Shown here: positions 1,844-52,444 of the stretch, piece after piece | How the letters are laid out: each line of letters opens with the position of its first letter | Numbering within the stretch: the stretch's first letter is position 1 | Assembly: GCA_965263355.1 (NCBI GenBank) | Contig: CBDHHL010000032.1 | Coordinates: 1,152,001-1,216,000, forward strand | Length of the DNA: 64,000 nt | Direction: 5' to 3' | Origin: Leptolyngbyaceae cyanobacterium | GTDB taxonomy: Bacteria; Cyanobacteriota; Cyanobacteriia; Phormidesmidales; Phormidesmidaceae | The notes under the pieces: generated by a model | The model's input: only the letters and a program-made list of their open reading frames with translations | The model's database searches: none | What the model was told of the DNA's origin: nothing | Made by a program: the position numbers and the translations under genes

Positions 1844-2890
1844 CTAGGCCGTACGATGTTGATTTTGTAGTTGTCGACTCTTTGCTACGTGTTGGGCGGC
1901 TTCAACGGTAGAAATATTAGCACTGCTGGCATAATTAAAAATTTCTAGTAATGTACCATAGATACTGTGAATATGATTGTTTACCTTGGTTGTTTGGTAC
2001 CCAATTAATTCGTGATAGACATTAATAAGCCCACCCGCATTAATGACAAAATCAGGACAATAAAGAATCCCTTTTTGCTTGAGTGATACTGCATCTTGAG
2101 ATGCATTTGCTAGTTGGTTGTTTGCACACCCTGCAATAATTGGAGCCTTGATGTTTTGCAACGTAAATTGATTAATCACACCACCCAATGCACAGGGTGA
2201 AAATACATCGGCATCTAGCCCCATTATTTGATTAGGAGGAACAACGGTTGCTTGATAGCGTTGTTGTATCCAGGCTGTTTTCTGGGTATCTAAATCACTG
2301 ACAAACAACTGAGCACCTTGTTCTGATAGATCATGACAGAGGGCTTGGCCCACATTGCCTAAGCCTTGAATTGCTACTTTTAAGCCCCTCAGAGTGTGAG
2401 ATTGCCATCGAAATGCTACGGCTGCTTTAATGCCCAATAGCACACCTTGAGCTGTTGCGATCGCAGGTCCTCCTCCTTTTTCTTCAACTCCAACAACATG
2501 ATTAGTAATTTGATGCATGGTGCGAACATCTTGAGCATTCAGGTTAACGTCTTGCCCGGTAACAAATCGACCACCCAGGCTATCGACAAAACGAGCATAG
2601 GCTTTGAGTAAGGTGTCTGTTTTTGCATCAGGATGGGCAATAATTACCCCCTTTGCGCCTCCAACCGGAATCTTGGCACAAGCGGCCTTATAGGTCATGC
2701 CTCGGCTTAGGCGCAGAACATCTTTCAGAGCATCGGCTTCATCAGTGTAGGGCCAGAGACGCGTGGCCCCCATAGCCCACCCAGGTGTGGTGTCATGTAA
2801 GGCGATAATGGCCTTTAGCCCTGTAGCCCTATGGCGACAGTACAAAACCTGCTCGTGGTCTGAACTTTGAATTGTTTGAAAGAGTTCCAT
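1844..2890 (-). CDS. scyB: Glu/Leu/Phe/Val dehydrogenase family, ScyB-like tryptophan dehydrogenase
   Basis: HEQV, AMGATR, SRGMTYKAACA, TGQDVN, GGPA, RWQS, QGLGNVG, PCALGG, ANNQL, INAGG; these match my recollection of Nostoc punctiforme ScyB/TrpDH better than Bacillus LeuDH (GGTR, TAEDV). Confidence 0.8.
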   Translation of the reverse strand: MELFQTIQSSDHEQVLYCRHRATGLKAIIALHDTTPGWAMGATRLWPYTDEADALKDVLRLSRGMTYKAACAKIPVGGAKGVIIAHPDAKTDTLLKAYARFVDSLGGRFVTGQDVNLNAQDVRTMHQITNHVVGVEEKGGGPAIATAQGVLLGIKAAVAFRWQSHTLRGLKVAIQGLGNVGQALCHDLSEQGAQLFVSDLDTQKTAWIQQRYQATVVPPNQIMGLDADVFSPCALGGVINQFTLQNIKAPIIAGCANNQLANASQDAVSLKQKGILYCPDFVINAGGLINVYHELIGYQTTKVNNHIHSIYGTLLEIFNYASSANISTVEAAQHVAKSRQLQNQHRTA

Positions 2891-2936: not shown

Positions 2937-4178
2937 TTAAGCTTGAGCACAAATCAGTGAAACCAGGGGCACGCCGTTATAACCAAAATTGAGGTAATGA
3001 TCAGCATGCTTTTGCAGAGTAAGTATGGGCGAGATGATCAAGGCATCAGTGCAGGAGGGGTTTAAGGTATAACCGCTCTGCTTTAGTCGGTTAACCCAGG
3101 ATTGAGCAGTTTCGTGGCGTTCAATACGGGCAGTGTTATCAGCTTTTAGTACATCAACAACTTCACGACCAAAGAAGCAGGTTTTTAAGCCATTTTTGCT
3201 TTGCTGATCAATTGCCAGAACGTCGATCATTTTGAAGACACTACTATAATGACGCCAGCAATTTTGAAATCGAATACGAAAGTCTGGCTCCAGATGATCG
3301 GTGTTAGGCTCAGATAAGACAATGAGTGCTGGATTGAGCTGATGCAGACGCTGTAGCATTTCTGTGCGTACATCTTGCCCAGCTTTATCACAAATATGAT
3401 GTAATGCAAAAGAAGCGTTTATGATAGGGCGATCACATTGATCCTTCAATTGTTGCCAGTCTTGAGCATTGAGATCTTCAATGCCATTACGAAACGCGGT
3501 AAAGGTAACATCAAGCCCAAGCTCATAGGCAGCAGCTAAGATTGTTTGTTGGGCTAGAGATAGGCTTTGTAATGAGGGTTCTATCCCAATAATGTTGACC
3601 CGTTGAGGTTTTCTATGTAGACAGGCTAACTGGTGAAGCAACTCGACCATTTGCCTGCCAGTCCCAATGCCGATATCAATCAGTGTGATATCATCGCGTC
3701 CATTGCAGGCGTCAATGAGTAAGCCGGTTGCGAGTTCGCTGATTTGTGAGACTAAAGGTACCTGGTTGGCTAACAGATTAAACAGTTGAATTTGTGGGAT
3801 TTCATAGGGTTTTAGGTAAAGATTGGCTTTGTCGGCCACACTATTAGAGAGGCGCTCTGCCAGGGCACGGGCAAAAATTAAATGAGCGATCGCATTGGAA
3901 TCAGTGGCGATATTGAGACTATCTAACAACTGGTTTAACTGAGCTTGAGCTGCACACATGTTCCCTTGCGCAATCAAATCTACAACGTTGAAAAGTCTCG
4001 TTTGATTCAAACTTGTTTGATTACGGTTAATGGTGACTGTGGGTTCAACCGGATAATGCTCTAACATCATCCTCACTCTAATATCAGTAATCGGTGCTAA
4101 TGTCTTCAGATTAGGTGTCATCAGTGTGCCTCTTTCAATAGTTTGTGGACTCTCGATTAACAAAAGATTAGGCGACAA
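2937..4178 (-). CDS. Bacterial GRAS-domain protein (Rossmann methyltransferase fold); true start may be a downstream Met
   Basis: LRI-like FARALAERL; VHIID-like ITLIDIGIGTGRQM; INASFALHHI; PFYRE-like LNPALIVLSE...RFQNCWRHYSSVF; SAW-region FGREV...RIERHETAQSW...GY. Confidence 0.88.
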   Translation of the reverse strand: MSPNLLLIESPQTIERGTLMTPNLKTLAPITDIRVRMMLEHYPVEPTVTINRNQTSLNQTRLFNVVDLIAQGNMCAAQAQLNQLLDSLNIATDSNAIAHLIFARALAERLSNSVADKANLYLKPYEIPQIQLFNLLANQVPLVSQISELATGLLIDACNGRDDITLIDIGIGTGRQMVELLHQLACLHRKPQRVNIIGIEPSLQSLSLAQQTILAAAYELGLDVTFTAFRNGIEDLNAQDWQQLKDQCDRPIINASFALHHICDKAGQDVRTEMLQRLHQLNPALIVLSEPNTDHLEPDFRIRFQNCWRHYSSVFKMIDVLAIDQQSKNGLKTCFFGREVVDVLKADNTARIERHETAQSWVNRLKQSGYTLNPSCTDALIISPILTLQKHADHYLNFGYNGVPLVSLICAQA

Positions 4179-4214: not shown

Positions 4215-5036
4215 TTAAAAAGCCTGGTTGTCTCGGATGTGTGAGTCATTAAATAGAAGAGCGGTGGTTGCTTGCTGCATAATATCAGTCGTATCAAATA
4301 AATCGCCGTTGTAAATTTGGAGTTGTTCAGGGCAGTCTTGCCAAATTTGTTGCCAGCCGTCGGGAAAGCGGGTGTGATGGATGAGTTCAGCGCCATTGGG
4401 CCCCCAGGCTGCTTCAAATATCAGGCTGTCATTGTCTGATTCTGCGTCGGTATCGCCTGGCGTTTGAATGCCGAGACGGTCATAGAGATTAATCAGGGTT
4501 CCGTCCTGGGTGTAGCTTATGCCATTGCCACAGTAATCGGCTCTGGCCATGCGGGTGCAGGCCTGATGATAATCTCTTAGGGAAGTACCCTGCTCTGTTT
4601 GCCAAGGGCGATAGCCCCACAGGGCACATTTGGCGATAACACCGCTGGTGCAGGCAAATGTGATTTCGTCGTTGGCAACATAGGCTCCGGTGTCGTCCCA
4701 TTCACCCTGGAGGGGAATGACTTTAGTGCTGCCATCGGGAGCGGGGTTACACAGGTTATGCCACTCAAAGGTATCGGGGTCTTGATACTGGATGGTGTAG
4801 AGGTAGGTTTCTTGCTGGGGATCGTTGTTATCCAACTCTGGGTCGGTAACTTTGATGGTGAGAGATGCACCGCTGGTCGTTTCCAGGGTGGTGGGCCTAT
4901 CTTGCAGTTGTCCTTCAACATAGAAGGGGACCTGTAATGTTAATCCATGGCCTGGTAATACTGCTTGAGAGAAGCTTAGGGCCGAGACCGTAAGTAAAAG
5001 TGGATTGATTAGAGAGGATAGAGTTACGAATCGCAT
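4215..5036 (-). CDS. Secreted ADYC-domain protein
   Basis: Hydrophobic N-terminal signal; FACTSGVIAKCALWGYRPW, HQACTRMARADYCGNG, FEAAWGPNGA signature motifs. Confidence 0.85.
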   Translation of the reverse strand: MRFVTLSSLINPLLLTVSALSFSQAVLPGHGLTLQVPFYVEGQLQDRPTTLETTSGASLTIKVTDPELDNNDPQQETYLYTIQYQDPDTFEWHNLCNPAPDGSTKVIPLQGEWDDTGAYVANDEITFACTSGVIAKCALWGYRPWQTEQGTSLRDYHQACTRMARADYCGNGISYTQDGTLINLYDRLGIQTPGDTDAESDNDSLIFEAAWGPNGAELIHHTRFPDGWQQIWQDCPEQLQIYNGDLFDTTDIMQQATTALLFNDSHIRDNQAF

Positions 5037-5157: not shown

Positions 5158-5832
5158 TTATTTGGCAGCATGACCGTCTAATGAAGTGCCCTGTGTACCA
5201 TTGCTTTTAGGGGCATGACCACTTAAGGAGATGCCGTTGTGCATAGCTTTAGGGGCATGACCATTCAAGGAAGTGCTTTGGACAGCATGCCCTTTGGCAG
5301 CATGACCATTAGGAGCCTGTCCGTCTGGGGAGGAGCTGTTTATGGCCAATCTCTTAGGAGCTTGTCCGTCTAAGGAAGAGCTGTTTATGGCCAATCTCTT
5401 AGGAGCTTGTCCGTCTAAGGAAGAGCTGTTCGGTAATGTAACTTTAGGAGCCTGTTCGTTTAGGGAAGAGCCGTTTATGGCCAACCCCTTAGGAGCTTGT
5501 TCGTCTAAGGAAGAGCTGTTTTGACTGATTGCTTTAGGAGCCTGTCCGTTTAGGGAAGAGCTGTTAAACGTTGCTGCTTTAGGTGCATGACCATTTAAAG
5601 AAGTACCATTATTGATTGCTTTAGGAGCCTGTCCGCGTAAGGAAGAGCTGTTAAGCACTACTCTGTCCTTATCACTTTTGGGAGATAGTGGCTGGAAAAA
5701 GGAGGCTTTTGCCGAATTTGCTTTAGGGGATGAGTTTTCTAAAGAGACTGTGTTGGCATTGGCGATTGTTGTCAAGCTTAGTACAGATGTAAATGCACAA
5801 GCGGCGGCCATAGAGAAAGAAATGCGCTTCAT
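5158..5832 (-). CDS. Secreted low-complexity protein with about 11 NSSSL(N/D)GQAPK repeats
   Basis: Sec-type signal ending IANA; ~15-aa repeat made of three pentapeptides; GGAG RBS upstream. Confidence 0.85.
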   Translation of the reverse strand: MKRISFSMAAACAFTSVLSLTTIANANTVSLENSSPKANSAKASFFQPLSPKSDKDRVVLNSSSLRGQAPKAINNGTSLNGHAPKAATFNSSSLNGQAPKAISQNSSSLDEQAPKGLAINGSSLNEQAPKVTLPNSSSLDGQAPKRLAINSSSLDGQAPKRLAINSSSPDGQAPNGHAAKGHAVQSTSLNGHAPKAMHNGISLSGHAPKSNGTQGTSLDGHAAK

Positions 5833-5896
5833 AGATTCAGACTCCTAATAGTTTGTGGGATTTTGGAAAGAACAGTTCGTTTGCTGTTCTGATAAC

Positions 5897-5938
5897 AGAG
5901 TATGGAAGTAGGCGTCCTGAAAACGTCCGCTGGCGTCC
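5897..5938 (-). promoter_or_regulatory. Putative SARP/BTAD-type activated promoter: three phased GGACG(CC/TT) heptamers plus TACTCT -10-like hexamer
   Basis: Minus-strand heptamers at 5938-5932, 5928-5922, 5917-5911 (10 and 11 bp period), then 8 nt, then TACTCT at 5902-5897. Confidence 0.5.
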
Positions 5939-6021
5939 TGGGAAAAAATAGCGTTGATCCTATGGCTTGAGATACGTTCGTATCCCTTGAAATCACTAGG
6001 CTACAGTGCCAATGTGACGCG

Positions 6022-6049
6022 AAAACGTCCTGAAGCCTCAGGACGTTTT
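6022..6049. promoter_or_regulatory. Perfect 12-bp inverted repeat (terminator of STAND gene and/or operator)
   Basis: AAAACGTCCTGA-AGCC-TCAGGACGTTTT; arms share the CGTCC core of the nearby direct repeats. Confidence 0.6.
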
Positions 6050-6127
6050 TCATATCTATGAAGAGCAAGTGTGCTAAAAAATTCCCCAAAAGGCATTCAC
6101 CCGGTGACCTGTTTGGGGCATAAAAAA

Positions 6128-9100
6128 TTATTCAACTGCCCCTAATGCTTTGAGTGCCGATTTTTGGGCCTCGGTTAATCCGGTGACATTGGCAATCTGC
6201 ATACCGGCGTAGGGTTTCAAAATATGAAAGGTAGAAAGGCGGGTGCCACTTTCCACATCCCAGAGGGTGATTTTCTCGTCCTCACCGCTGCAGGCCAACA
6301 GATGTCCGTTAGGATGAAGCGCCATAGACCATAGGGGAGCTTCGTGGGTAAGTACTTGCAGACATTCCCCTGTTTGCACATCCCAAATGCGGGCAGTGCC
6401 GTCATGGCTGGCACTGGCAATCAAGTGCCCATCTGGATGAATGGTCATGGCATATACCCAGCCGGTATGACCAGTGAGGGTACGGAAGCATTCGCTTGAT
6501 TGCAAATTCCATAGTTTAATGGTGCGATCGCCACTAGCACTAGCTAACCAAGTCTCAGGTAGATCATCCAAGGTAGCTCCAGACTGAGACGGACTAAACG
6601 CCACCGCATACATCCAATCGGTATGCTCCTGCAGCGTTTGGACGCATTCCCCAGATTCCACATCCCAAAGCTTGATCATATGATCAGCCCCAGCACTGGC
6701 CAGCTGTCGTCCATCGGGACTAAAGGCCACGGCCCAAACTTGGTTAGCATGTCCTGGCAGCTGCTGACAGCATTGCCCTGTGGTCAAATCCCAAATCCGC
6801 ACCACCGGTTGAATGCTGCCACTCGCTAATAGCTTTCCTTGGGGATGAAATGCTACACCATGGACCCACCCTGCCCGACCATCCAAAATTTGAATACTTC
6901 GGCCAGTGTCCCCATCCCACAGTCGAATGGTTTGATCAAATCCCCCTGTTGCTAGGATGGTTTGCAAGGTGCCGGACAGTTGCTGCTGAGCCACGGCCCA
7001 AACCCCACTGCTATGCCCTTCTAATGTCTTTAAACATTTGCCTGTCCGACTATCCCAAAGACGAATCAGGCTATCATCCCCGCCGCTAACCAGGGTGAAA
7101 TCATCATCACAAAAGGTGAGCGACCGAATGCAGTTGGTATATCCCTGCAGCGTTTGGACACATTGCTGTGTCTCCATATCCCACAACCGAATGGTTTGAT
7201 CAAAGCCACCGCTGGCTAACCTCTGCCCATCGGGACTAAAGCCCACTGCCCAGATTTGATCGGTGTGTCCTAGCAATGTGGCCAGACAGCTTTCGTTTTG
7301 GACATCCCACAAGCGCACCGTTTGATCATTACTGCCACTGGCGAGCATCTGTCCATCGGGGCTAAAGGCAATTGCCCAGATTTGATCGGTATGGGCCATC
7401 AACGTACTTAAGCATTGGCCCGTTTCAAGATCCCATAGACGAATCGTTTGGTCAGCTCCAGCGCTAGCAAGCATCTCTTGAGTGGGGTGTAGGGTAACGG
7501 ACCAAACCGGAGCCTGATGACCTTGAAAAACGGTAACACAGTCTCCTGAGTCCACATCCCACCAACGCACTACCTGAGCGGCATGCCCCGTGGCCAAATG
7601 AGTTCCCCTCGGATTAAAGGCTACAGAACGGACCAATCCCCCCTGGCTCTCCAGGGTGTGTAAACATTCGCCAGTTGTAGCATCCCACAGCTTGGCCGTT
7701 TGGTCTTCGCTGCCGCTAGCTACCCGCTGTCCATCGGGGCTAAAGGCCACGGACCACACCACGCTGGTGTGATCCTGCAGTATTTTCAAACATTGGCCTG
7801 AGGGTACATCCCAAAGCCGCACCGTATAGTCAACGCTGCCACTGACCAGGGTTTTGCCATCGGGGCTAAAGGCGATGGACCACACCCATCCCTTATGGCC
7901 CTGCAACGTCATCAGAGGTTGTCCATCAGTAACACGCCAAATCTGAACGTTGTAATTGTTGTCTCCCATCGCCAGGAGTGTCCCATCGGGACTAAAGGCA
8001 ATGGATAGAGCACTGCCAAAGGCCTGGGTAAACACCGACCTTACAAATTGTGCATGGGAAACATCGAGTTGGTGAAGCGTTGTTCCCTGAAGATAGGCCT
8101 GACGAATAGTGAGCTGGGAAAAATCTAAGTTGCTGGTGTCTAACTGGTTTTGACAGCAAAGATTGAGCAAATTCCCGCCGGCGTAGCTGGCACGATGAAC
8201 TTCGGTGTCGTGAATAGCCGTTAAAATCTGCTGAATTTGTTGCGTTAGGGCTATGGATGATGATGCTTGATTAACCTGCTCAAGGATGGGTTGCAAAATC
8301 AGGCGACATTGACTTTCACGAATAAAGTCTTGAACTGTTGCTTTGATGAGGGCATAGGCCGAGAGATGTGGCAGTTCAGCTGCAGCCTCCCTAAGTGTTT
8401 CGTCAAAATAGCTAATATCCAAAAGTTCATCGCTGACGGCTTCGATCAAACAGACCGTGACATATTCCATGACAACGGATTGTTGGGTGTAGGTATTACC
8501 CCGGCGTTCAATTAGCGATCGCCAACAGAGCGACTCTAGGGTTTCCAACAACAGTCGTTTAGAACACCGAGGATAAATATCAGCCCTCAGCTCTGGAATG
8601 CTGGTCCACTCCCGGTTAATCGCCAGCCAATACATCACCGTCTTTTCTAGAGGACTGAGCCGATCAAATTGTCGATCAAGTAGCTTTTTTGCGCCGTTAA
8701 ATAGAAGGGTATCCTCTTCTAAAAAAAGAGAGATGTCTCCGGAAAACACATCCCGTATCGAACCGCCGACAATTTGCAATGCCAAAGGGCTATATCCATA
8801 TCGTTTCCCCAGTTGTTCTTTTTGCACCTGGGTACCGACCAGTTGCTTAGCGTCTAGTACTGCCAGAGCGGCTTCGGGAGAACCAGCAACTTGGAGCGAT
8901 CGCACCGACTGGTTGATGCTTTCAAATGTCGAAATTTCAGCCGGTTTTTCACGACTTGTGATCATCAGGCAGCTCTGATGATTTGCCTGTCCCACCACTT
9001 GAATCAATTCACCGTAGTTTTCATAGCCGTCTCGAAACTGTCCGGCGCGTTCGCCTCCCTTGAGGATGGTTTCGCAATTATCCAAAACTACCAGACACCG

Positions 9101-10378
9101 GGATTGTCGTAGCCAGTGCATCAAGCGGTTTGTGGAACAGGCAGTGTCCTGTTGATTTGACAAAAAAGGAATTAAATCATTGAGTAACGTTTCTAGGGGC
9201 GGCGCATTGCGAAGCGATCGCCAAATCAGGTGGTCAAATTCCCCTTGTAGTTCCTGAGCTATTTTGGCAACTAGTGCCGTTTTACCAATGCCCCCCATTC
9301 CCAGCACGGCGGTCAGTCGACAGGAGTTTTCAACAATCCATCGCCGCAACTGAGCCAGTTCATCCGTGCGACCGTAGAAGAACTCAATGTCAGGGGCTTC
9401 GCCCCAGTCAATAGACGTCTTTGCCTGGGGCAAGGCTCGATCATCTTTGATATTGAGCCCTTGATCTGAGGAGGACTCGTTGCTATCTGTAGCTACATTG
9501 GATTCTGAGAACAAGGTAGCTGTGGTAGCCTCGGAAGTAGGCGTTTCCCAGCCTGGTACCACGATATCGGTATCCGAAAACTCTCTTGTCGGTAAACTAT
9601 CTGAAATTTGGCTGGTAACTACCTGGGGGGTATCGTCTAGTGTGAGTAACTCTTCATACAAGCTGCAGGTACTAGGACTGGGTGGCATGCCCAATTCCTC
9701 TTGCAGTAAAGTCATGCATTGATGATAGATACGCATGGCAGTGGCGCGATCACCCTTTTGGGCATGCAGCTGCATGAGGTGACAATAGGCCAGCTCTGAG
9801 AGTGGATCTAACTCACATAATTGCTGCGCATATTCAATGGCTGAACTCAGCTGGCCTTGTTCTGTTAGCTGGGTAATCAAGGTATCCAGTGCTTTGATTG
9901 CTTGCTGTCGCATGCGATCGCGATAGGGCTCAATCCAGTCGTCATAACACTCTGGCAATAAATCTCCCTGGTAGAGTTTAGCGGCTTGCTTCAAGTCTTT
10001 GAGGGAACTGGTTTGAAATACTTGTTCGTTGATTACTTGTTCGTTTATCAGTGCTTCAAAACGGTCTATATCTAACGCACACCCCTTACCCATGACCCAC
10101 TGAACCGTTTTAGGCTTAACCTGCAGCCAGCGTTCGCTCTCAGGGATATGTTGCTTCAGTTCATGCAATCGTCGTCTTAAGTTGGCTTTAGCGTTAGTAT
10201 CCGTTGCGTCAGGCCAAAGAGTTGCCGCTATTTGCTGTCGAGATAGTGGTTCATCTCGATGCAGTAAAATAAATGCCAATAATGCCTGTAAGCGTTCAGA
10301 CTTTACCCCACTGATGGGCACAGTATCAGCACTGAGGGAAAACTTGCCCAATAGTTGAATCTGCAGTTGGGTAGACAC
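6128..10378 (-). CDS. STAND/NLR-type transcriptional regulator: wHTH + BTAD + NB-ARC + WD40 repeats
   Basis: N-terminal LQIQLLGKF...LWPD...NLRRRLHEL and BTAD (LYQGDLLPECYDDWI, DPLSE); DWGEAP; Walker A GMGGIGKT; Walker B LVVLDN; about 14 GH...WD repeats. Confidence 0.93.
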   Translation of the reverse strand: MSTQLQIQLLGKFSLSADTVPISGVKSERLQALLAFILLHRDEPLSRQQIAATLWPDATDTNAKANLRRRLHELKQHIPESERWLQVKPKTVQWVMGKGCALDIDRFEALINEQVINEQVFQTSSLKDLKQAAKLYQGDLLPECYDDWIEPYRDRMRQQAIKALDTLITQLTEQGQLSSAIEYAQQLCELDPLSELAYCHLMQLHAQKGDRATAMRIYHQCMTLLQEELGMPPSPSTCSLYEELLTLDDTPQVVTSQISDSLPTREFSDTDIVVPGWETPTSEATTATLFSESNVATDSNESSSDQGLNIKDDRALPQAKTSIDWGEAPDIEFFYGRTDELAQLRRWIVENSCRLTAVLGMGGIGKTALVAKIAQELQGEFDHLIWRSLRNAPPLETLLNDLIPFLSNQQDTACSTNRLMHWLRQSRCLVVLDNCETILKGGERAGQFRDGYENYGELIQVVGQANHQSCLMITSREKPAEISTFESINQSVRSLQVAGSPEAALAVLDAKQLVGTQVQKEQLGKRYGYSPLALQIVGGSIRDVFSGDISLFLEEDTLLFNGAKKLLDRQFDRLSPLEKTVMYWLAINREWTSIPELRADIYPRCSKRLLLETLESLCWRSLIERRGNTYTQQSVVMEYVTVCLIEAVSDELLDISYFDETLREAAAELPHLSAYALIKATVQDFIRESQCRLILQPILEQVNQASSSIALTQQIQQILTAIHDTEVHRASYAGGNLLNLCCQNQLDTSNLDFSQLTIRQAYLQGTTLHQLDVSHAQFVRSVFTQAFGSALSIAFSPDGTLLAMGDNNYNVQIWRVTDGQPLMTLQGHKGWVWSIAFSPDGKTLVSGSVDYTVRLWDVPSGQCLKILQDHTSVVWSVAFSPDGQRVASGSEDQTAKLWDATTGECLHTLESQGGLVRSVAFNPRGTHLATGHAAQVVRWWDVDSGDCVTVFQGHQAPVWSVTLHPTQEMLASAGADQTIRLWDLETGQCLSTLMAHTDQIWAIAFSPDGQMLASGSNDQTVRLWDVQNESCLATLLGHTDQIWAVGFSPDGQRLASGGFDQTIRLWDMETQQCVQTLQGYTNCIRSLTFCDDDFTLVSGGDDSLIRLWDSRTGKCLKTLEGHSSGVWAVAQQQLSGTLQTILATGGFDQTIRLWDGDTGRSIQILDGRAGWVHGVAFHPQGKLLASGSIQPVVRIWDLTTGQCCQQLPGHANQVWAVAFSPDGRQLASAGADHMIKLWDVESGECVQTLQEHTDWMYAVAFSPSQSGATLDDLPETWLASASGDRTIKLWNLQSSECFRTLTGHTGWVYAMTIHPDGHLIASASHDGTARIWDVQTGECLQVLTHEAPLWSMALHPNGHLLACSGEDEKITLWDVESGTRLSTFHILKPYAGMQIANVTGLTEAQKSALKALGAVE

Positions 10379-10690: not shown

Positions 10691-11500
10691 CACATACAAA
10701 TGTCCTAACAGAGGATATACGTCAGCTTACTGGCCCAAGATTGCTTCAACAAGCTGGTCTTAAGCGTGGTGAGTTAGATTTATTAACTGGGTGTCCTCCA
10801 TGTCAAGGGTTTTCAACATTGCGGACTAAGCGGCGTAATCAAAAAAATGATGATCAGAGGAATGACCTAATTCGGGAAGTCTTACGTTTAGTTCGTTCTA
10901 TGCGACCAAGATCCGTTCTCATAGAGAATGTTCCAGGTTTAGCGAAAGATCGGAGATTTGCAGATTTTAGAAAAGGCTTGAAAAAATCTGGTTATTTTTC
11001 AGACTATGAAATTCTAAATGCGGCAGACTTTGGTGTTCCACAACGTCGTCGTCGTTTAGTACTTGTTGCCTTTCGAGGTATGGATGTGCCCAGTGGTTGG
11101 TCTTGTTACAAATCCGCCGAGAAGCATGTCAGGCAGACTATTTCTCATTTGTCTACCTCAGCTGGCTCTAGTGGAGATCCGCTACATGATATTCCAGAAC
11201 GAAGAACACCAGCTATGATGGCCAGAATAAAAGCTACTCCCAAAGATGGTGGTAGTCGCAAAGATTTACCTCCAGAAATGCAGTGTGAATGTCATATTCG
11301 TGGAGATGGATATTTTGATGTTTATGGAAGGATGGCATGGGATGATATTGCTCCTACTATTACTAGTGGATGTAGTAATCCTTCTAAGGGACGATTTTTG
11401 CATCCTGAGGAGGATCGAGCAATCATTCTCCGAGAAGCTGCACTGCTACAAACATTTCCAATAAATTATAAGTTTTGTCTTGAACGCGGGAAGGATCATG
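10690..11500 (+). pseudogene. DNA cytosine-5 methyltransferase, truncated at both ends
   Basis: GCPPCQGFS, IENVPG, GVPQRRRR, REAALLQTFP present; motif I (FxGxG) and motif X (GNA) absent. Confidence 0.8.
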
Positions 11501-12086
11501 TCTTGAATCTAATAATGTTTCTAAGGAATTTAGTGTAGTGGTTCAAAGAGGTGGAACTGCAATCCGCTCCAATCAACTTTATCGAGATATCAAAGCTTTT
11601 GCTAACTCTGGGAGAAAAAATATTTTTATTATTTTTGATGGTGATCATTATCCTGAAAGAGTTATTCCAGAAGATGGTCTCTTGCCACAAGGTGAAAAGG
11701 AAATAAAGGGTCTGATTAACGATATTACAAAAGGTAATAATTCTAAAGGTCCTAATCTAAACTTTGAAGATGTAGATGATATGACACGCTACATTCAATT
11801 TTTTCGACAGTTTATTTATTTCCTCCCGGCCCGTACGCCTGAGGAATTGGTTTGGAATAATGATGTTGCAAAAGAACTCTTAAAAAAAGAAGTTCCCAAG
11901 AGCATTTTAGGGGTAAAAAGTTATAAACAAAAAATCGCTATGCTTGCAGATATACTTCCAGGAGTCGATCCTGAAGCAGTGTTTCAATTTCTACTGTTAG
12001 GTTTCCTGAGTCGAGATAGTGAGCTCAAGTCAGAACTCATGGAACGTATTCAAGAGATTCGCTCATATCTTGCTACCAAATTGTAG
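11496..12086 (+). pseudogene. C-terminal TOPRIM-like fragment of a probable OLD-type ATP-dependent nuclease
   Basis: Frame open from about 11496 (SCLESNNVSKEFSVVVQRGG...IFIIFDGD...TPEELVW); AT-rich; no proper start. Confidence 0.5.
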
Positions 12087-32620: not shown

Positions 32621-33778
32621 ATGTTTGATGCTGTTTGTAAATTCCTGGTCGAAACATTCTCAATTGACTTTGCCACCTGGCTGTTAAGTGAGCCTGTTAC
32701 CCTGACTGAACTCAGTCCATCCGAGCTATCCCTGGAACCCATTCGGGCGGATGCGTTGATTTTGTTACAGTCTGAGGAGACAATTCTGCATCTTGAGTTT
32801 CAGTGCAGGCCCGATCCGGATATGGCCTTCCGCATGATCGATTATCGATTGCGTGTGTATCGACGCTTTCCTAAAAAATCGATGCGGCAGGTGGTGATTT
32901 ATTTACAACCCACTCAATCTGAGGCCGTTTATCAAACGACGTTTGAGATTCCTAACACTCGCCATGAGTTTGAGGTGGTTCGGTTATGGGAACAGCCGTC
33001 ATCGATATTTCTGAGTGCGCCAGGGCTATTACCGTTTACGGTTTTGACCGCAACTGAGGATCGTTCAGAATTACTGCGGCAGGTGGCACGTAAAATTGAG
33101 CTATTGCCTGAGCGTCGTATGCAAAGTAATGTGGCAGCCTCGACGGCAATTTTGGCTGGGTTAATATTGGATAAGGCTCTAATTCAGAGGGTTTTGAGGA
33201 AAGAAATGATGCAAGAATCGGTCATATATCAGGAAATCAAAGCCGAAGGCCGTCAAGAAGGATGGCAGGAAGGTCGTCAAGAAGGATGGCAGGAAGGTCG
33301 GCAGGAAGGTCGGCAGGAAGGTCGGCAGGAAGGTCGACAGGAAGGTCGACAGGAAGGTCGGCAGGAAGGTCGGCAGGAAGGTCGGCAGGAAGGTCGGCAG
33401 GAAGGGGAGGTGCTATTGGTACGGCGGCTCTTGATGCGTCGAGTTGGTCCATTGCCCGAGGCGTTAGGTGAGCAGATTAAGGCGCTGTCTTTGGTGCAGT
33501 TAGAGGGGTTGGGTGAGGCGTTATTGGATTTTTCTGAATTAGCTGATTTAGAGAGGTGGTTGGGCGATCTTCAGACTGGGATAGCTGAGGTTTTAGAGGG
33601 GGTACAGGTGCAGCTGGGTGAGTTGTTGCCTGAGATGATGGCTGAGGTGCAGGCGTTATCGTTGCAGCAGATAGTGGGGTTAAAGGCTGAGTTGGGTAAT
33701 TGGTCTACTGTGAATCAGTTGCAGGCTTGGTTAGAGGAGAGAAAGGCTGAGGAAGAGAGTTTTAAGGATGGTTTTTAG
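32621..33778 (+). CDS. Rpn-family (DUF2887/PDDEXK_2) nuclease with DUF4351 C-terminus
   Basis: EPIRADAL, LHLEFQ, FRMIDYRLR, MQESVIYQEI, LEGLGEALLDF. Confidence 0.9.
   Translation: MFDAVCKFLVETFSIDFATWLLSEPVTLTELSPSELSLEPIRADALILLQSEETILHLEFQCRPDPDMAFRMIDYRLRVYRRFPKKSMRQVVIYLQPTQSEAVYQTTFEIPNTRHEFEVVRLWEQPSSIFLSAPGLLPFTVLTATEDRSELLRQVARKIELLPERRMQSNVAASTAILAGLILDKALIQRVLRKEMMQESVIYQEIKAEGRQEGWQEGRQEGWQEGRQEGRQEGRQEGRQEGRQEGRQEGRQEGRQEGRQEGEVLLVRRLLMRRVGPLPEALGEQIKALSLVQLEGLGEALLDFSELADLERWLGDLQTGIAEVLEGVQVQLGELLPEMMAEVQALSLQQIVGLKAELGNWSTVNQLQAWLEERKAEEESFKDGF
33245..33400 (+). repeat. 13 tandem 12-bp units encoding EG(R/W)Q
   Basis: GAAGGTCGGCAG-type repeats read directly from the sequence. 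Confidence 0.9.
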
Positions 33779-36575: not shown

Positions 36576-36644
36576 TAAACCCTTTTATAAAGGGCGCTTA
36601 AACCCTTTTATAAAGGGCGCTTAAACCCTTTAGAAAAGGGCGTT
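36576..36644. repeat. Three tandem 23-bp palindromic repeats
   Basis: TAAACCCTTTTATAAAGGGCGCT x2 plus TAAACCCTTTAGAAAAGGGCGTT. Confidence 0.9.
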
Positions 36645-36666
36645 TACTTTATCTGAAGTTACAATT

Positions 36667-52135: not shown

Positions 52136-52444
52136 ATGTCTGTTTATGTGGGCAATTTGTCCTATGACGTTACTCGTCAAGATATCGAGGACGTTTTTAA
52201 TGAGTATGGTCGTGTAAACCGGGTTAGTTTACCGACGGATCGTGAAACAGGTCGCCTTCGCGGATTTGCTTTTGTAGAGATGGCCGCTAAAGAGGATGAG
52301 ACCAAAGCCATTGAAGCCCTAGACGGTGCTGAGTGGATGGGTCGCGTCCTGAAAGTTAATGAGGCTAAGCCTCGCAATGCTTCTGCTGGCGGTGGCGGTG
52401 GCGGTGGCGGTGGCGGTGGCAACTATCGCCGCAACTCTTTCTGA
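52136..52444 (+). CDS. rbp: RRM RNA-binding protein with Gly-rich tail (cyanobacterial Rbp)
   Basis: SVYVGNL, RGFAFVEM, LDGAEWMGRVLKVNEA. Confidence 0.95.
   Translation: MSVYVGNLSYDVTRQDIEDVFNEYGRVNRVSLPTDRETGRLRGFAFVEMAAKEDETKAIEALDGAEWMGRVLKVNEAKPRNASAGGGGGGGGGGGNYRRNSF

Follow-up and report, generated by a model that had tools for sequence, protein, structure and literature searches.

The gene at 5158-5832 on the reverse strand of the stretch analysed here (64,000 nt, referred to as the window) encodes a small repeat protein that, judged from its sequence, is a divergent, stand-alone member of an uncharacterised family of partners of the ADYC domain (PF20032). The protein is new as a proline-bearing, hairpin-less variant of a repeat partner of a catalogued but unstudied kind. 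With confidence somewhat short of even, we favor the view that the gene is the repeat half of a split repeat-ADYC pair, its product being an exported, non-catalytic structural partner whose repeats would stack to give a short, beta-rich rod, bound or capped by the ADYC protein. The genes of the locus are the following.

5158-5832, reverse strand: repeat-protein ORF of 224 aa (translation; no Pfam or NCBIfam family)
4215-5036, reverse strand: ADYC-domain protein of 273 aa with its own predicted signal peptide and six Cys in pairable positions (PF20032, E 1.6e-53)
6128-10378, reverse strand: BTAD (SARP-type), NB-ARC/STAND and WD40 regulator upstream of the repeat gene, its likely controller (domain matches)
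2937-4121, reverse strand: GRAS-family (methyltransferase-fold) gene, probably co-transcribed (PF03514, E 1.5e-43)
1844-2890, reverse strand: Leu/Phe/Val/Trp dehydrogenase, ScyB-like (526.7 bits, below the cut-off of 600)

Within and just ahead of the repeat gene, five further features can be read.

5842-5846, reverse strand: ribosome-binding-site-like AGGAG (sequence)
5755-5832, reverse strand: predicted Sec signal peptide, residues 1-26 of the repeat protein (by inspection)
5161-5652, reverse strand: eleven 11-aa cores, [NQ][SG][STI]SLx[GE][QH]APK, with spacers of 3-4 (once 9) residues (sequence)
5333-5430, reverse strand: recent duplication without mismatch, 53 nt repeated at a lag of 45 (sequence self-comparison)
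5532-5654, reverse strand: stretch crossed twice by contigs of three runs, with a 132-nt in-frame block, three more units, missing from the window (contigs)

Only one of the six frames across 5158-5832 is free of internal stops, the other five containing 6-19 each, and the AGGAG lies 9 nt ahead of the ATG. By inspection, residues 1-26 carry a Sec-type signature with a basic start, a hydrophobic core and an A-N-A site, in keeping with the signal peptide of the original prediction. The N/S/G/Q-rich units that it described are also found, these four residues making up 43% of positions 61-224, with 8 NG, 6 NS and 4 DG. A single aromatic residue occurs among the 164 of the repeat region, and the mature chain lies at the order/disorder boundary (mean hydropathy 0.425 versus 0.430). 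An N-x-S/T sequon opens 8 of the 11 cores (10 sequons in the whole protein), and the cores of two related partners, L014 and L081, open likewise; the cores may be glycosylated at these sites.

The array is composed of eleven units closing in APK, APN or AAK, and the protein terminates at the end of a core. Tandem Repeats Finder reports a period of 45 at 5309-5652 (score 277-289), and core-to-core distances are 14, 15 or 20 aa, a refinement of the roughly 11 units of about 15 aa that had been predicted. All eleven cores have an Ala and, at position 4, a Ser, while Leu, Pro and Lys each occur in ten, proline being found in ten of the eleven units. The proposed unit, NSSSL-DGQAP-KRLAI, is sound in its first two pentamers and the Lys that follows them, which are conserved, but KRLAI itself occurs in two units only. 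The proposed phasing in threes of pentamers is largely real as well: a five-residue phase runs through residues 75-194 (24 pentamers), one insertion of exactly one pentamer included, but it is broken by two 4-residue spacers. Between units, pN and pS are 0.17 and 0.48 for the core as opposed to 0.70 and 0.77 for the three codons before it (pN/pS of about 0.35 versus about 0.9), which indicates that the core is under purifying selection at the protein level while the spacer is nearly free. Positions 5378-5430 repeat 5333-5385 letter for letter (53 nt, lag 45), and one 45-nt unit has thus been exactly duplicated, as originally noted.

The number of units may be larger than the window suggests. 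In all three runs that cover most of this sequence (from two samples, possibly the source of the window), contigs pass over 5532-5654 a second time and carry 9 additional letters; a 72-nt contig in the loop region has depths of 28, 54 and 11 compared with about 20-26, 24-29 and 6-7; and one run also has a contig short of one 45-nt unit. These observations indicate that the array was either collapsed in assembly from 14 units or is variable between strains, and the real array may hold 14 units instead of 11.

No Pfam family matches the repeat protein at E ≤ 1, a search with the whole protein through 1494 candidates of 123-392 aa gave no relative at E ≤ 0.01, and a profile of its unit has no match to PDB sequences at E ≤ 10. 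In the Atlas, only look-alikes scoring below 0.9 were obtained. The exact sequence is absent from a collection of 15 billion proteins in which the neighboring GRAS protein is present, and the repeat gene may have been missed by gene callers or assembled differently. Since the whole protein has no direct relative, the family was traced through ADYC.

The ADYC domain is widespread, with 2,383 representatives of PF20032 at E ≤ 0.001 in a 50%-identity library, and its near-constant companion is a small repeat protein, predicted to be exported, that is mostly missed by Pfam. The closest relatives of the window's ADYC protein are P0086 and P0231, and the nearest named ones are cyanobacterial; in viral contigs, none of 24 candidate stretches was confirmed as an ADYC relative. 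Loci were assembled from 11 genome loci, the best 80 of 570 metagenome loci and 3 from 301 genomes (93 after one duplicate was dropped), of which 25 were too short or unparsed and 68 were assessable; this set was curated by hand, contains several near-duplicates and leans toward relatives of the cyanobacterial query. A repeat element accompanies ADYC in 62 of the 68 assessable loci, as a separate adjacent gene in 52 and fused in 10, and neither arrangement is found in 6. Among 159 ADYC proteins, 35 have at least two tandem N/Q-G pentamers before the domain, 60 have isolated motifs only and 64 have none. Two parts of the original prediction are borne out by these counts: ADYC proteins elsewhere do carry N-terminal pentapeptide repeats, and the repeat and ADYC parts do occur split into two genes. 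A literature search returned no paper on ADYC or on the repeat-plus-ADYC anatomy, and no function for the fused or split form, subscription journals lying mostly outside its scope.

The repeat partners are 61-202 aa long. Most of them have a signal-like start, pentamers of the form N/Q-[GARKS]-x-x-x and, at the C-terminus, a motif resembling a hairpin. This last motif, which was defined from the same partners, is present in 49 of 54 partners versus 26 of 174 control C-termini. Relatives hold a strict five-residue phase over up to 26 pentamers, degenerate ones included; N and Q are mixed within single arrays, and the core sequence varies across the family (NKLAA, NALTS, NGNNW, QGIDY). The PF00805 cut-off is passed by 3 of 13 relatives scanned (L062, 33.9 bits; L088, 24.5 bits; P0127, 40.9 bits), and a profile of the family matches pentapeptide beta-helix structures with a best E of 4e-6. 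A coil of 15 residues common to the family was considered and rejected, the best lag being 1, 2, 3 and 4 pentamers in 10, 10, 6 and 5 of 31 arrays, respectively, and no passage on 15-residue coils was found in the literature searched. Individual loci depart from the common layout. In L010, two repeat-ADYC pairs lie in tandem, and in one of them the pentamer NGLST is repeated perfectly 24 times; in L004, L048 and L077, a single ADYC is preceded by two or more partner genes; and the repeat of L089 has a period of six residues.

Three comparisons tie the window protein to this family, and a fourth does not. Scored on a table derived from 420 pentamers of the family, the first pentamer reaches +5.9 to +13.8 bits in all eleven units, whereas the second is positive in only 4 of the 11 and the third in only 4 of 10. 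A profile of the window units plus one row from L014 retrieved a single protein among 7990 scored candidates, and this protein, P0233 (E 5.9e-4), is a fused repeat-ADYC protein of the kind that the original prediction had proposed to look for. A tblastn search of the window protein against all fetched loci gave 6 matches, all of them partner genes, with the caveat of low complexity. A profile-profile comparison between the alignment of the window units and that of the fused proteins was negative (probability 1.5%). The C-terminal hairpin-like motif was not found in the tail of the window protein. Proline at pentamer position 5 is also seen in 8 of 52 contiguous-type partners.

Two other partners of cyanobacterial type are likewise spaced and hairpin-less, namely those of L014 (668-1024) and L081 (1911-2138). 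In L014, the core NGSSL[TS]G[QH] recurs 23-26 aa apart and out of phase; in L081, three 15-residue units have the core NGTSDTG, and a second small ORF lies between partner and ADYC. When 568,565 nt were searched in six frames, the strict core motif turned up 8 times in the window gene, 3 times in the L014 partner and nowhere else. The ADYC proteins of these spaced pairs lie on different branches of a quick tree that has many open forks. Of the pairs examined, 6 of 7 cyanobacterial-type hairpin pairs and none of the 3 spaced pairs have a G-x-x-L-x-G segment where ADYC begins; loss of the segment together with the hairpin can be taken only as a hint, because 5 of 6 other hairpin pairs lack the segment too. 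What is distinctive in the window gene is the proline in ten of eleven units, the lack of the hairpin, a SARP-like box upstream (described below) and possibly three collapsed units. The gene amounts to a natural experiment in which the core has been kept under selection, the docking-like hairpin dropped and a proline added per unit, and it thus separates the role of the repeats from that of the hairpin.

The ADYC protein was modeled with AlphaFold2 at a pLDDT of 89.6 and consists of a beta-rich N-terminal part and an alpha/beta part. Neither this model nor that of a fused relative has a Foldseek match at E ≤ 0.001, a result that does not establish a new fold. The best VIA match has a Z of 3.7 (rmsd 3.6, 76 aligned) and the best Atlas score is 0.77, with the C-terminal half barely covered. 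Four of the Cys never vary, and two more pairs covary across 249 rows, related rows not being independent: for C169/C235, both are present in 229 rows, neither in 18 and the two disagree in 2, and C218 is concordant with a C-terminal Cys in 243 of 249. Because Cys are gained and lost in pairs, the pattern fits disulfides in an oxidizing compartment and leaves no lone catalytic Cys. The polar residues K136, H157, R162, R165, D167, T176, D186, E208 and R223 are conserved at 87-100% and could form a putative binding or catalytic site; H157 (87%) is the only His conserved at 75% or more. P0001 and P0002 are larger proteins that end in ADYC, preceded by a CarboxypepD_reg-like domain, and P0002 opens with a TIR domain, which hints at a role in signaling.

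Known repeat systems resemble the pair in part. The closest are the single-chain repeat-ADYC proteins (PF20032; P0233, P0104, P0127 and many myxobacterial ones), in which pentamers of the type seen in the window directly precede an ADYC domain. The window differs from them in having two genes, each with a predicted signal, a 15-residue super-repeat with proline, and no hairpin. The five-residue phase is also shared with the Rfr fold (PF00805/PF13599; Qnr, MfpA, Rfr32), and some relatives of the window protein pass PF00805, as given above. According to passages of PMC8145042, the Rfr consensus has a central Leu or Phe in at least eight contiguous pentamers, and exported cyanobacterial members exist, such as the signal-peptide-bearing Rfr32 of Cyanothece. 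Membership of the Rfr family was rejected for the window protein, in which a conserved Leu recurs only every third pentamer and is followed by proline, and which has no Pfam match. With proline at the Leu/Phe position in ten of eleven units and no Pfam match, a canonical pentapeptide beta-helix or curli subunit is not supported. Mycobacterial Erp, a secreted protein with proline-containing five-residue PGLTS repeats (PMC2639381, in part), is brought to mind by the family member L010, which scores 132.7 bits on the GLTT family of Erp (PF01744). The window protein, in contrast, has no GLTT match, and the likeness is probably compositional.

A structural two-part module would account for these observations as follows. 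Both chains would be exported to the periplasm or the cell surface, as their predicted signal peptides suggest. The five-residue rungs, where in phase, would stack into a short beta-rich rod, each 15-residue unit contributing two conserved rungs, N/Q-x-x-S-L and x-G-Q/H-A-P (with the proline at a turn), and one exposed variable rung. An amide ladder would permit the alternation of N and Q seen within single arrays. The neighboring ADYC protein would bind or cap the rod and, as the C-terminal hairpin has been lost, any contact with ADYC would run through the repeats. The upstream SARP-STAND regulator would activate the pair. A structural module is preferred because repeats and ADYC occur fused, long arrays keep a strict phase, N and Q interchange, and ADYC has no lone catalytic Cys. 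Several observations count against a rod: proline occupies the would-be inward Leu/Phe position in ten of eleven units, the spacer is unconstrained and the phase is broken twice; L014 is spaced out of phase, hydropathy is at the order/disorder boundary and the family has no 15-residue period; and in 60 of the 159 ADYC proteins the motifs are isolated, too few for a coil. To these can be added the AlphaFold2 model of the fused relative P0104, in which an 8-pentamer array is unfolded (pLDDT about 40-58 versus above 90 for most of ADYC), although this is weak evidence given a shallow alignment. The proline, the free spacer, the L014 spacing, the isolated motifs and the unfolded model favor either a flexible multivalent ligand or a multi-core substrate of an ADYC enzyme.

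A serious, if unlikely, alternative is that the repeat protein is a disordered string of motifs, in which each N/Q-G-x-S-L-x-G core binds one ADYC, so that the string clusters or titrates ADYC and no solenoid forms. A conserved core with a free spacer is what such a ligand would show, as is the recurrence of a shared 8-residue core at spacings of 15 aa (L081) and 23-26 aa (L014); the confinement of the strict core motif to the window gene and L014 within the 568,565 nt points the same way, as do the isolated motifs ahead of ADYC in many proteins and a chain that is proline-rich and borderline disordered. The joining of ADYC to TIR in P0002 might be a case where clustering matters. However, independent motifs would have no need of the strict phase kept by long contiguous arrays in most relatives, and contiguous five-residue motifs would give each bound globular domain little space.

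It is also conceivable, though we consider it rather unlikely, that the repeat protein is a precursor holding several peptide cores and that ADYC, as an extracytoplasmic enzyme, would modify or cut these Asn/Gln-Gly cores, with the two parts fused or split in the manner of the plant BURP-domain cyclases (burpitides), to release signal or bioactive peptides. In burpitide systems, as in the window, a multi-core repeat chain is fused to or lies beside a Cys-rich domain (parts of PMC12186524), and the fused and split layouts are parallel in the two. The anatomy of core and spacer, the termination of the protein exactly on a core and the conserved polar residues of ADYC listed above are all consistent with a substrate, and the pair heads regulator-linked gene sets in which the downstream genes change. 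On the other hand, core sequences are diverse across the family and N and Q are mixed in one array; most arrays are contiguous and have no common cleavage residue; and ADYC has one conserved His and paired Cys as opposed to the four copper-binding His described for BURP in the same passages. ADYC lacks the His pairs, and the window repeats are almost devoid of aromatics to cross-link. The original prediction had offered a multi-core precursor as its alternative. The conserved core, the free spacer and the L014 relative with its 23-26 aa spacing speak for that part; cleavage after Lys and isoAsp chemistry, which it also specified, find no support, this Lys not being common to the relatives and no protease or known peptide-modifying (RiPP) enzyme occurring among the 8 neighboring ORFs scanned. 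A recognized RiPP precursor was rejected, no known modifying enzyme or protease being conserved with the window gene across the fetched loci. Quite unlikely is the fullest version of the substrate reading, in which ADYC would be a new class of extracytoplasmic peptide-modifying enzyme, possibly with a new fold, acting on Asn/Gln-Gly cores either fused (self-processing) or split, as a bacterial counterpart of the plant BURP pathways; the window gene would then encode the clearest substrate of this enzyme, a precursor of 11 to 14 cores, and the products would act back as signals on the adjacent SARP-STAND regulator.

A self-propagating functional amyloid of the curli type, with the repeat protein as major subunit and ADYC as nucleator, is the original prediction at its strongest and appears improbable. 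The window does share with CsgA and CsgB a (predicted) export signal, imperfect repeats rich in N, Q, G and S (43% N/S/G/Q) and a dedicated partner gene, and disorder of the monomer would be no bar, CsgA being secreted disordered and folding into beta-solenoids that stack (from the part of bioRxiv 10.1101/2023.05.26.542396 available). However, neither curlin nor any other family matches the protein, proline is present once per unit in ten of the eleven units, and the repeat region has only the one aromatic residue mentioned above. No csg export gene (CsgG/E/F) or other dedicated secretion gene was found among the 8 neighboring ORFs scanned, and ADYC, a Cys-rich domain with a globular alpha/beta structure in the model, is not a repeat paralogue like CsgB. 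Finally, a decaying or drifting copy, a hairpin-less gene without a role whose array is kept only by slippage, is highly improbable: the hairpin is gone, the unit number is unstable and 6 of the 68 assessable ADYC loci have no partner, but the frame is open, signal peptide and ribosome-binding site are retained, pN/pS differs between core and spacers as given above, and the spaced, hairpin-less design recurs on two other branches.

The fiber, ligand and enzyme-substrate models can be tested directly with synthetic 15-mers and one soluble domain. If the repeats do form a fiber, the pair would represent an envelope polymer system unlike curli; if they are a substrate, they would point to a new class of enzyme.

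The repeat-ADYC pair lies in a run of genes on the same strand, with gaps of 295 nt between regulator and repeat gene, 121 nt between repeat gene and the ADYC gene downstream of it, 93 nt between ADYC and GRAS, and 46 nt between GRAS and dehydrogenase. The GRAS and ScyB-like dehydrogenase genes probably share a transcription unit with the pair; neither has a match in any fetched ADYC locus, which places them outside the conserved module, and among the neighbors only ADYC travels with the repeat gene across these loci. A candidate control site is found ahead of the repeat gene.

5899-5938, reverse strand: GGACG as a direct repeat in three copies, spaced by 10 and 11 nt, with 8 nt separating the last copy from a -10-like CATACT (predicted SARP-type geometry)

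In SARP promoters, as described in portions of PMC10936776, direct repeats are spaced by 11 or 22 bp, with 8 bp between the 3' copy and the -10 element. The geometry of the GGACG triple matches this arrangement, so control by the adjacent regulator is a reasonable inference, and the upstream SARP-STAND protein likely controls the repeat-ADYC genes. The triple is unique in the window and was reproduced in 0 of 100 shuffles, a post hoc estimate, since the site itself supplied the pattern; a sigma-70 scan did not list a promoter at the triple. A related NB-ARC gene stands beside a repeat-ADYC pair in six other loci (L016, L017, L018, L019, L020 and L026), three of them from one assembly; there it is divergent from the pair, whereas it is co-oriented in the window. 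The genes downstream of the pair change between loci, and include what we take, from resemblance, to be an acyl-AMP ligase with a type III PKS in L018, presumably a terpene cyclase in L019 and presumably a methyltransferase in L022.

A few further observations were made in the window. An element of about 70 nt at 5977-6055 recurs in runs X1, X2 and X4 on other contigs whose flanks differ, is overlapped by a perfect 12-bp inverted repeat at 6022-6049, and is possibly a small dispersed repeat. Over 4634-4784, run X2 has a contig of 151 nt that shows 20 differences and represents a second ADYC-like sequence, belonging to a relative or paralogue. At 10741-12086 on the forward strand, an ORF of 265 aa matches the C-5 cytosine methylase profile from position 58 of 324 onward; an unassigned ORF of 182 aa comes next, and the two may be a truncated restriction-modification remnant. 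Other tandem repeats in the window are found at 33245-33405 (12 nt x 13.4), 36576-36646 (23 nt x 3.1) and 52387-52420 (6 nt x 5.7).
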